The position numbers and the translations under genes were made by a program. Positions 2,897-6,281 of a stretch of 64,000 nt of DNA are shown here, in pieces (the stretch's first letter is position 1; every line of letters starts with the position of its first letter). This DNA comes from an uncultured delta proteobacterium. Its GTDB lineage: Bacteria > Desulfobacterota > SM23-61. A model generated the notes under the pieces. That model was not told the origin of the DNA, did not search any database, and was given only the letters and a program-made list of their open reading frames with translations. Location: the NCBI GenBank assembly GCA_963712535.1, contig CAVQIK010000008.1, forward strand, positions 34,798-98,797, given 5' to 3'.

Positions 2897-4004
2897 TTAT
2901 AGGGCCAAAGAGTTACCCTCCCGGTAGCAATTCTCCAGCTCCTCTGAAATCGCGGCCGCTACCGCCTTCGCCCCGCCCTCTGCCTGGCCCGCGGCTGAAA
3001 TCCGGAACCGCTCTTTTTCCAGCGCCCGCCAGACGGCCCTTTCCAGGAGGGCCGCGTCCTTCTTCCTCCCGAGATAATCCAGCATCATGGCCCCGGCAAG
3101 GATCTGGGAGAGAGGGTTGGCCAGGTTTTTGCCGATCAAGTCGGGAGCCGAGCCGTGGATGGGCTCGAAGTAGGCGCGGTCATCCCCCACGTTGGAAGAG
3201 GGGCACATCCCGAGACCCCCGACGGTGGCGCCCCCGAGGTCGCTGAGAATATCCCCGAACATGTTCTCGGTGACAATCACGTGAAAGTGCCCGGGCCGCA
3301 TAACCAACGCCGCCGCCGCGGCATCCACGTAGAGGGTCTCCGCCTCCACCGCCGGAAACTGGCGGGCAACCTCCGCGAAGATCTCCCGGAAGAAATGGAA
3401 GCTTCTCAGCACATTGCTCTTCTCCACCAGGGTGACCCTTCTCCGGCCGTCCTGCGGCGCGCCTTCGGCTTTCCTCGAGGCCATCTCGAAAGCGCGACGG
3501 CAGATCCTCTCGCACCCCTTGCGGGTGAGCAGAAGGGTGTCGGAAGCCGCCTGCTCCAGGACCAGGCCCCTTGCGCGGGATGCGTAAAGGCCTTCGGTAT
3601 TCTCACGGACGACCACGTAGTCGATACTTCCCGGGGGTTTGTCCCGGAGGGGGCGTCGCTACCCCGGGGAACAGCTTGAGGGGACGGATGTTCGCGTACA
3701 GGTCGAACCCGCTCCGCAAAATCCCCCCCAGCACTCCGGCTTCCGTGCCATCCGGCCGGCGCACTCCGGGGAGGCCCACGGGGCCTTTCAGGGTCGCGTC
3801 GGCCCGGCGGATCGCTTCGATGGCCTCGGCGGAGATGCTCTCCCCGTGCTTGACATGGTACGCCGCTCCGGCCTGGCGGAAGTCAAAGGAGAGCTGGAAA
3901 TCCCGGGACAGCTCCTGAACCTTCTCCAGGACGGCCACGGCGGCATCCACGATTTCAGGTCCGATGCCGTCGCCCGGGATCACCACAATTCGATAAGTTT
4001 TCAT
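2897..4004 (-). CDS. Isocitrate/isopropylmalate dehydrogenase family protein (one frameshift)
   Basis: IVVIPGDGIGPE, DLYANIRP, VVRENTEGLY, ENMFGDILSD and FEPIHGSAPD are split over two ORFs. One extra base in the G/C run at ~3650 joins them. Confidence 0.9.
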
Positions 4005-4165
4005 TTCTTCTTCCTCCTTATTTTCAAACCGGCGGATATGTCCCTTCTGAATCCATCATCCACCGTCGACCTACCCGGATATTCCAAAAAAATGGGGAGA
4101 AAACCTTATTTCTTCCATTTCTTCCATCCCGTAGAATGAAACCACGAAGTCGGGAAGGAGGCAAG

Positions 4166-4585
4166 ATGAAAAGAGCTGGCATGGCCATTTTTTTGAGCGC
4201 TTTCGCTTTTTGGGCCGTAACTTCCCTGGCCCAGGATCGCGTGCCGAGAATAAGCAAGGAGGAGCTGAGGGCGATGCTTGGGAGGCCTGACCTCGTTGTG
4301 CTCGACGTCCGAGTCGGCGAGGAATGGTCGGGAAGCGATAAAAAAATCCAAGGGGCAGTGCGCGAGAACCCCGCCGATCTTGCCTCCTGGATAAACAAGT
4401 ACCCAAAGGACAAGACCCTGGTCTTCTACTGCTCCTGACCCGCTGAACAGACTAGTGCCTGGGTGGCACAGCAGCTGATCAGGGAAGGGTATCAAAAAGT
4501 TTACGCGCTGAAAGGCGGGTTTCAAGAATGGGAAGAAGCCAACTTCCCCATGGAGGATAAATCAGTTCGGAATATCGTAATCTGA
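4166..4585 (+). CDS. Exported rhodanese-like selenoprotein (in-frame UGA = Sec91)
   Basis: Signal peptide and rhodanese N-half end in VFYCS-TGA (4436-4438). The same frame continues PAEQTSAWVAQQLIREGYQKVYALKGGFQEWEEANFPME, the canonical rhodanese C-half. Confidence 0.85.
4455..4469 (+). promoter_or_regulatory. Putative bacterial SECIS hairpin
   Basis: GTGCC-TGGGT-GGCAC with the loop starting 21 nt after the UGA. Confidence 0.6.
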
Positions 4586-4669
4586 GACCTGTTCGCCCGG
4601 ATGCCGCCGTCGCGGGCCTGGCGTATTTAGCACAGCATCCCAAGGGGGGAGGTACTTTACGGATGAAAA

Positions 4670-5227
4670 CTAAACACCGGCACCTCCCCGGCTGACAAAC
4701 GGGTTTCCGGGAATAAAAAACCGCCACTCCAGCTCCACCGCCCGCGAAAGGCCGATCCGCCGCGATGTTTCGATCCTGGCGGGTTCGGCGGCAGGATAGA
4801 TTTTGAGTTCCCCTCCCACGGGTTTCCCGAGCAGCTCCAGGCCGATTCCGAAGGCCTCGCAGACTTTCCCCGGCCCGTTGGTCAGGTGGGCGACCGCCCG
4901 CGTTTTCCTGCGCCGCTCCATGATCTCCAGGCCGCGGGTGGGCTCCACCGCCCGGATGAGGACGGCCCCCGCGCCATCCCGCTCGGTGGTGAAGTTGAGG
5001 CAGTAATGCCGGCCGTAAATGAAATAAACATAAATATGGCCGAAGGTATCCAGAAGTAGACGGGCGCTTCGCGGCTTTCGCACCCAGTGCGAGGCCGGGT
5101 CGTCCCGATAGGCTTCGGTCTCGACCAGGATGCCCGCGCATCCCTTGTACTCCATCTTCTTTCCCAGGAGATCCCGGGCTACTTCAAGCGTATTCCGGGC
5201 AAAGAAGTCCAATCCGATCCCCGTCAT
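4670..5227 (-). CDS. mpg: DNA-3-methyladenine glycosylase (MPG family)
   Basis: LEVARDLLGK, ILVETEAY, YVYFIYGRHYCLN, GAVLIRAVEP, LTNGPGK, RIGL and WRF motifs. Confidence 0.93.
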   Translation of the reverse strand: MTGIGLDFFARNTLEVARDLLGKKMEYKGCAGILVETEAYRDDPASHWVRKPRSARLLLDTFGHIYVYFIYGRHYCLNFTTERDGAGAVLIRAVEPTRGLEIMERRRKTRAVAHLTNGPGKVCEAFGIGLELLGKPVGGELKIYPAAEPARIETSRRIGLSRAVELEWRFFIPGNPFVSRGGAGV

Positions 5228-5498: not shown

Positions 5499-6281
5499 AT
5501 GGCCAGCTCGAAAAAATTCCCCCACTTCCGGCAAAGACTCCTGGAGCGGCGAATCCGGATTTTTGAAACCCATGAAGAAATCCACGAACAGCGGCTGAGC
5601 CTCCATGAACCGGAGATCGAAAGGGTGGAGAAGGCACAAAAAGAGAAGATGGCCCAAATCATGGGCCAGCTGGATCGAAGAGAGAAAGACGAGCTCGAAG
5701 CCATTGACCAGGCCTTGGCCCGAATCGAAGCAGGGGGGTACGGGATCTGCGAATCCTGCGGGAAAAGAATAGGTATAAAACGCATGGAATCGGTCCCCTG
5801 GACAAAGCTGTGTAACCGGTGTGGAAAGGACCGGGAGGCACAGGCCCCTTCGGAAACTCCTGAAAGAGCGATCGTCCGGCCTTCTCCGCTCCCGCCCGAT
5901 TACCAAGGCCTGAGCGATGAGGAGATCGTGGAAGGCGTTATGGACACGCTGCAAACGGATGGCCGGGTGGAGACCGACGAGCTTCAGATCCGCTGCCGGG
6001 ACGGCATCCTGTACCTCGCCGGCTTTCTGCTCAGCGAAAAAAAGCGCCAGATTCTGCTCCAGATTATTCACGACACGCTGGGGTTCCAGGACGTAGTCGA
6101 CGAGCTCTCGGTCGATCCCGTGCTTTGGGAAAGGGAGGACCGGACGCCCGACGAGAAGCTGAAAGGCCAAATTGAGGATGAACGATTACCGGTCCCGCCG
6201 GCGCAGCAATCGGACTTCGCGGCCGACGACGCGCCCATGGTCCCCCCCGACGAGCTGATCCCCGAAGACACCGACCGTTAA
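5499..6281 (+). CDS. TraR/DksA C4 zinc-finger protein fused to a BON domain
   Basis: Coiled coil followed by ALARIEAGGYGICESCGKRIGIKRMESVPWTKLCNRC, then a BON-like segment (LQTDGRVETDELQIRCRDGILYLAG...GFQDVVDEL) and an acidic tail. Confidence 0.8.
   Translation: MASSKKFPHFRQRLLERRIRIFETHEEIHEQRLSLHEPEIERVEKAQKEKMAQIMGQLDRREKDELEAIDQALARIEAGGYGICESCGKRIGIKRMESVPWTKLCNRCGKDREAQAPSETPERAIVRPSPLPPDYQGLSDEEIVEGVMDTLQTDGRVETDELQIRCRDGILYLAGFLLSEKKRQILLQIIHDTLGFQDVVDELSVDPVLWEREDRTPDEKLKGQIEDERLPVPPAQQSDFAADDAPMVPPDELIPEDTDR

Follow-up and report, generated by a model that had tools for sequence, protein, structure and literature searches.

Selenocysteine is almost certainly encoded by an apparent stop codon at the catalytic position of a rhodanese gene, with a predicted signal peptide, in an uncultured delta proteobacterium

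The apparent stop codon of a small rhodanese gene in an uncultured delta proteobacterium almost certainly encodes selenocysteine (Sec) at the catalytic position, as judged from the sequence and its homologues. The gene lies at 4166-4585 on the + strand of the window (i.e., the whole 64,000-nucleotide stretch of contig CAVQIK010000008.1 that was analysed) and is very probably an intact, single-domain rhodanese gene with a predicted signal peptide, in which the UGA at 4436-4438 would be decoded as Sec. The first-pass annotation had handled it as a fresh candidate, while by its profile score it is a member of a selenoprotein family already known: the NCBIfam equivalog model NF041203 'rhodanese_LYCAU' ('rhodanese-related (seleno)protein'; curated cut-off 115 bits) matches the read-through protein at 173.7 bits and E 1.1e-51, over profile positions 5-126 of 126, and a six-frame search of the organism's own genome with this model gave 166.3 bits for the gene, with one TGA. 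A 2026 selenoproteome review lists the family as rhodanese form 3, motif CxU (PMC13188914, Table 1), and attributes it to Zhang & Gladyshev 2005 (bSECISearch). Because the family is catalogued, the selenocysteine call appears correct yet ordinary. Its value lies mainly in annotation, as generic gene callers cut the gene at residue 90 and some JGI entries carry a spurious Trp, and it adds one more selenoprotein to an organism with at least eight Sec-rhodanese genes.

Reading frame, rhodanese domain, and hairpin

From the ATG at 4166, the frame runs for 90 codons to ...TLVFYCS, meets the in-frame TGA at 4436-4438, and continues through 48 further open codons (PAEQTSAWVAQQLIREGYQKVYALKGGFQEWEEANFPMEDKSVRNIVI) to the stop at 4583-4585, while the standard ORF list cuts the gene into pieces of 100 and 40 aa. 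A start at ATG 4136 was considered and rejected as it is without a Shine-Dalgarno sequence; ATG 4166 has AGGAGG and recurs in L074 and L075. The features of the gene, in window coordinates, are as follows.

4156..4161, + strand: Shine-Dalgarno sequence AGGAGG, 4 nt 5' of ATG 4166, kept in the independent contig L074
4166..4585, + strand: complete CDS including the stop, rhodanese selenoprotein precursor of 139 residues when translated with TGA=U
4166..4231, + strand: predicted Sec-type signal peptide, residues 1-22 (MKRAGMAIFLSAFAFWAVTSLA, cleavage after SLA), by heuristics
4256..4537, + strand: Rhodanese domain, residues 31-124, Pfam PF00581 match across the UGA (E 2.8e-15)
4430..4432, + strand: TGC for Cys89, the C of the CxU motif, invariant across two homologue alignments
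4436..4438, + strand: TGA read as the selenocysteine codon U91 at the catalytic Cys position, aligned to the catalytic Cys of 6mxv
4443..4482, + strand: possible extended lower SECIS helix, from the minimum-free-energy fold (-20 to -21 kcal/mol, z about -1.5 to -1.8)
4455..4469, + strand: predicted SECIS upper stem and apical loop GUGCC-UGGGU-GGCAC, from the fold and covariation in 53 homologues
4583..4585, + strand: true stop codon TGA, directly 3' of which similarity to the 95%-identical contig L074 collapses

It had been proposed from the letters of the sequence that the frame runs past YCS-TGA with the C-terminal half of a rhodanese and that the UGA falls in the active-site loop, and both proposals are borne out. 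The Pfam Rhodanese profile spans the UGA at residues 31-124 and matches across it as one stretch, so the frame 3' of the UGA is not a chance open frame. A gapless phmmer alignment sets U91 on the catalytic Cys of the solved rhodanese 6mxv (U-P-A-E-Q-T-S vs C-G-G-G-F-R-S), and the active-site loop U91-P-A-E-Q-T96, followed by S97, fits the six-residue C-X4-(R/T/S) pattern, its length being that of the sulfurtransferase type and not of the seven-residue Cdc25/Acr2 type. Two residues N-terminal of U91 stands C89 (F-Y-C89-S-U91), the motif being conserved in all homologues listed, and an acidic residue is conserved in the loop (E94, with D in a few homologues). The AlphaFold2 model (mean pLDDT 80; 86-93 in the domain; below 50 for the unstructured residues 1-21) has strand 84-88, loop 89-94, and helix 95-106, i.e., the canonical rhodanese active-site strand-loop-helix, and the best Foldseek matches are all rhodanese domains (6mxv, 3tp9, GlpE 1gmx, and Sud 1qxn), so that Pfam, phmmer, AlphaFold2, and Foldseek agree on the place of the UGA.

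The first-pass annotation had further described a hairpin with a 5-nt G-rich loop 21 nt after the UGA, and this position was confirmed: the stem strands GUGCC (4455-4459) and GGCAC (4465-4469) enclose the loop UGGGU (4460-4464), with the stem starting 16 nt and the loop 21 nt from the UGA. Published bSECIS rules set a loop of 3-9 nt, a stem of at least 4 bp, a G at loop position 1 or 2, a distance of 16-37 nt from the UGA, and an energy of at most -7.5 kcal/mol (PMC13188914, Fig. 2). The minimal hairpin, with a 5-bp stem, a 5-nt loop, G at loop position 2, and -8.9 kcal/mol, lies within every one of these limits. Its fold strength alone is unexceptional in G+C-rich sequence (z -1.1 to -1.8 vs shuffles), and the SECIS call is therefore based on conservation and covariation in homologues. 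Across 53 distinct homologues, 99.6% of the stem cells are paired and four of the five stem pairs show compensatory changes (10 cells: U-A to C-G seven times, G-C to C-G, and C-G to U-A twice), while 0 of 500 shuffles reached the observed stem pairing and covariation and slid registers paired at 20-66%. All 53 have G as the second loop base, although the residue encoded there can be R, W, S, or G, whose codons at this place all have G in the middle; the nucleotide rather than the residue appears to be conserved. The lower helix is less conserved, its pair 17-37 being formed in only 7 of 14 sequences, and an Rfam search over 4000-4800, with E values up to 10 allowed, returned noise (mir-31, GHRLOS, and sR30) and no SECIS-like match.

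By heuristic inspection, the N-terminus (MKRAGMAIFLSAFAFWAVTSLA, then QD) is laid out like a Sec-type signal peptide, with n, h, and c regions: two residues are basic, a hydrophobic window of 12 residues reaches 2.2 on the Kyte-Doolittle scale, and an AXA-like site lies just N-terminal of the conserved domain start VPR(I/M)(S/T)KEEL. The same n/h/c layout was seen, by the same heuristic, in 15 of 15 family members examined, including a Cys form and a CxC paralogue, and the NF041203 profile itself includes the N-terminal signal-like segment. These features are consistent with Sec-dependent export of the predicted precursor.

Homologues, selenocysteine machinery, and competing explanations

Family matches above the cut-off occur in 49 of 301 genomes sampled across the phylum. 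TGA stands at the U91 codon in 63 of these 66 matches (56 with one TGA and seven with two, i.e., UxU-type) and is absent from the other three, and the in-frame TGA recurs over 45 genera. The full-length family members compared are about 46-57% identical to this protein, and the only closer sequences are environmental contigs, at 97% and 71% over truncated parts. Two points about homologues had been raised earlier as telling for or against selenocysteine, namely whether some have Cys aligned to the UGA and whether all of them end at it. Cys homologues were found (P0005 and P0007, both translated by table 11), and P0007 has TGT at the aligned codon, with a degraded hairpin whose stem is broken and whose loop is without the leading G. 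Although the majority of database entries for homologues are fragments of ~90 aa that stop at the TGA, the family continues past it.

Further, an independent 706-bp contig from another sample (ENA ERZ27276616, k141_4356462, MEGAHIT-style; L074 above) is about 95% identical over the gene. Its start, its TGA, and its final stop are all retained and its hairpin is identical, while similarity collapses outside the gene. Between the two sequences, the part 3' of the UGA has 8 synonymous differences and 1 non-synonymous when read in the Sec frame; read in the other two frames, the counts are 2:7 and 0:9. This 8:1 excess shows purifying selection on the read-through product.

These comparisons bear on three other ways of reading the TGA. 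It is very improbable that it is an assembly or sequencing error for TGC or TGT in an ordinary Cys rhodanese: the assembly is demonstrably error-prone, but the errors seen in it are indels and not substitutions, an error at 4436 is argued against by the independent contig with its same TGA and hairpin, and the family has TGA at this codon in nearly all matches in the phylum (63/66). A genuine stop, by which the gene would be a nonsense-truncated pseudogene or two separate small ORFs, would agree with the standard ORF call ending at the TGA and with the ~90-aa truncated predictions among homologue entries, yet it seems hardly credible when the truncated product would be without the active-site loop and half the fold, the downstream frame is conserved (8:1), the NF041203 profile is matched through position 126, and the same 'stop' recurs in 45 genera. 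Reassignment of TGA to Trp or Gly under an alternative genetic code deserves equally little credence. W does stand at this position in two JGI entries (P0004 and P0006), but that of P0004 stems from gene calling with TGA=W; moreover, the gene's own terminator is TGA and neighbouring genes too use TGA as a regular stop, Cys is the aligned residue in the table-11 homologues, and a canonical tRNA-Sec is present in the genome.

The search for selenocysteine machinery elsewhere in the genome, which the first-pass annotation had named as a check, was answered in large part: selC, selB, and a Sec-containing selD were found (selB and selD with one frameshift each), while selA was not. The genes recovered, together with seven further rhodanese ORFs that have TGA at the catalytic codon, are as follows (prefixes denote contigs of the assembly).

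C14:180340-180434: selC, tRNA-Sec with anticodon TCA, 72.9 bits against a gathering score of 47
C20:59213-61106, - strand: selB, two frames joined by one frameshift, the pieces scoring 168.9 and 183.3 bits
C5:580098-581019, - strand: selD, one frameshift, with its own Sec codon (...MVRAAG-U-AAKLSPEDL...)
C3:460947-461312, - strand: Sec-rhodanese ORF
C7:132524-132892, + strand: Sec-rhodanese ORF
C4:328859-329185, + strand: Sec-rhodanese ORF
C1:245449-245781, + strand: Sec-rhodanese ORF
C9:58760-59092, - strand: Sec-rhodanese ORF
C7:64076-64273, + strand: Sec-rhodanese ORF
C7:197145-197438, - strand: Sec-rhodanese ORF

In the 22 contigs of the assembly, selA was found neither with the TIGR00474 profile (0 matches) nor by tblastn with the SelA of five relatives (E 1e-3). 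By synteny, one neighbour of selA maps beside the organism's own tRNA-Sec, and the intervening 1.5 kb is a frameshifted redoxin-like gene, not selA. Taken at face value, these results would mean a dead Sec system, with selA lost, selB and selD truly frameshifted, and the rhodanese gene a relic giving a 90-residue product. The absence of selA and the one frameshift in each of selB and selD speak for such a decay, but we consider it quite unlikely. The assembly has an estimated completeness of only 75.6% and single-base indels split its ordinary genes (e.g., the neighbouring Iso_dh gene, broken at 3603-3616 of the window), while selA is present in 15 of 17 relatives, including nine of nine high-quality genomes; in view of this indel-ridden, incomplete assembly and the selA of relatives, we ascribe the selB and selD frameshifts to assembly errors and the absence of selA to a gap. 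Against decay also stand the genome's rhodanese ORFs, at least eight of which (this gene and the seven listed) keep the catalytic TGA and are all otherwise open, and the 95%-identical sister lineage, which shows purifying selection after the UGA.

The redoxin-like ORF (...YCFSCQ...) broken by frameshifts is at C14:178974-180160, with a conserved gene on one side and the tRNA-Sec on the other, and one relative has selA near the equivalent place. The Sec-rhodanese complement of this genome is unusually large, and we take the presence of at least eight such genes to confirm the selenium-rich, sulfur-centred lifestyle typical of Thermodesulfobacteriota. Among the seven further ORFs are two NF041203 paralogues, one short form with C-D-U, one with a classical U-Q-A-G-V-R-S loop, and three with a longer N-terminal part that includes a hydrophobic segment and a C-N/D-U motif. 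In addition, a CxC paralogue at C3:12974-13336 (- strand) has a predicted signal peptide and Cys for Sec (V-I-Y-C-D-C-G-H-E-E-D-S), and scores 85 bits with NF041203, below the cut-off.

Possible function and comparison with known systems

If the UGA is decoded as proposed, the hairpin at 4455-4469, which lies within the CDS, would recruit SelB with Sec-tRNA(Sec), and translation would go on to the stop at 4585. In the product, Sec91 would take the place of the catalytic cysteine as the first residue of the six-residue loop U-P-A-E-Q-T, and Cys89, at the end of the central beta-strand, would be the conserved partner of Sec91 (CxU). The precursor would probably be exported to the periplasm via the Sec pathway and cut after SLA22, where a periplasmic donor may pass sulfane sulfur (or selenium) to the U91 selenolate; C89 could then resolve the U91 adduct as an intramolecular selenenylsulfide, or might protect or merely tune it. 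On this scheme, the protein would serve as a redox-active carrier or reductase rather than as a classical thiosulfate:cyanide sulfurtransferase.

Two properties of the active site bear on this scheme. Position 89 is itself TGA (UxU) in the homologues L032, L037, L042, L066, L087b, and L100, and since the partner is Sec in some lineages, the position is marked as redox-active and a selenenylsulfide (C89-U91) cycle is favoured. Binding of the anionic thiosulfate by a rhodanese needs a basic loop, and the conservation of the acidic E94 (rarely D) argues against thiosulfate as substrate. A classical thiosulfate sulfurtransferase would be recognised by a neutral or basic loop and a score above the GlpE cut-off, while this protein has E94 and reaches 35.8 bits with the NCBIfam GlpE model vs a cut-off of 102. 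'Sulfurtransferase' may thus be the wrong label for the activity of CxU rhodaneses. We raise tentatively, as a possibility that we hold with considerable doubt, that the exported CxU rhodaneses are periplasmic selenenylsulfide redox enzymes (persulfide, polysulfide, or selenite reductases or carriers) and not sulfurtransferases; their C89-U91 dyad would cycle between selenol/thiol and Se-S and be recharged by electrons via CcdA/DsbD-type membrane proteins. Such a redox role would be compatible with the UxU variants, the acidic loop, the occasional DsbD_TM neighbour, and the parallel with TsoB described below.

Among known systems, the NF041203 family, which is typical of Thermodesulfobacteriota as here, shares with this gene a full-length profile match, CxU at the catalytic position, SECIS in the same codons, and an N-terminal signal-like segment. 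The gene differs from it in having F-Y-C-S-U where the family has L-Y-C-A-U and in a seven-residue C-terminal tail (SVRNIVI) past the usual ...EPK end. In deltaproteobacterial symbionts, rhodanese-related selenoproteins belong to the most abundant families of selenoproteins, and a UxU variant of the present family has been described there (PMC1976440); the earlier statement that rhodanese selenoproteins are known from Deltaproteobacteria/Thermodesulfobacteriota is supported by this and by the recent review (PMC13188914). The UxU variants of the Olavius algarvensis delta symbionts (PMC1976440) have the fold, loop, and SECIS in common with this gene but carry Sec at the first position, which is Cys here (TGC at 4430-4432). 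In the UxU relatives L042, L066, L067 (= L032), L037, L087, and L100, the second TGA uses the same hairpin position, and several UxU variants lie in or beside far longer open frames, up to 575 aa.

Sud, the periplasmic polysulfide-sulfur transferase of Wolinella succinogenes (1qxn), is an exported single-domain rhodanese of an anaerobic sulfur-metabolising bacterium, as is predicted for the present protein, which it resembles over the whole domain (phmmer E 1.4e-4; Foldseek E 1.3e-6, TM 0.64). Identity is, however, ~20%, the catalytic residue of Sud is Cys and not Sec, Sud is without a Cys two residues before it, and the present gene adjoins no polysulfide reductase gene, so that we regard Sud as the nearest working analogy and not as evidence of family membership. 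The GlpE/PspE type (1gmx) has the same fold and a six-residue loop ending in S/T (C-Y-H-G-N-S vs U-P-A-E-Q-T here), but GlpE is cytoplasmic, has Cys, and is without the CxC/CxU dyad, and the acidic loop residue is a feature of this gene. TsoB (NF045694, a rhodanese/DsbD fusion-like selenoprotein) has a Sec rhodanese domain linked to a DsbD-type membrane thiol-disulfide module; this protein, in contrast, scores 36.6 bits vs a cut-off of 805 with that model and has neither a fusion nor an adjoining CcdA gene.

Genomic context

The window copy stands alone, with a divergent Iso_dh gene on one side and a convergent gene for methylpurine-DNA glycosylase on the other, and neither the context of this copy nor that of the family loci held a conserved operon partner pointing to a pathway. 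A DsbD_TM gene lies directly upstream in 2 of ~60 distinct family loci (75 sequence records searched), an adjacency that we rejected as a pathway clue because it is too rare. The two DsbD_TM/CcdA-type genes upstream of a CxU rhodanese (L041:3168-3899, + strand, and L090:1988-2695, - strand) are 62% identical to each other. A downstream amidase was also rejected as a partner: its conservation is confined to the neighbourhood of the C3 group of paralogues in the taxonomic family and is probably due to common descent. For the + strand gene, a scan for promoters and terminators was uninformative.

Two neighbouring genes in the window deserve mention in their own right. The isocitrate/isopropylmalate dehydrogenase-family (Iso_dh) gene at 2897-4004 (- strand) consists of two overlapping ORFs, of which 3603-4004 covers profile positions 2-112 and 2897-3616 covers positions 126-326, with a single frameshift near 3603-3616; this split looks more like the result of an indel in the assembly than like a pseudogene. 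The 260-aa protein encoded at 5499-6281 (+ strand) has both a DksA/TraR C4 zinc finger and a BON domain, which is an uncommon pairing.
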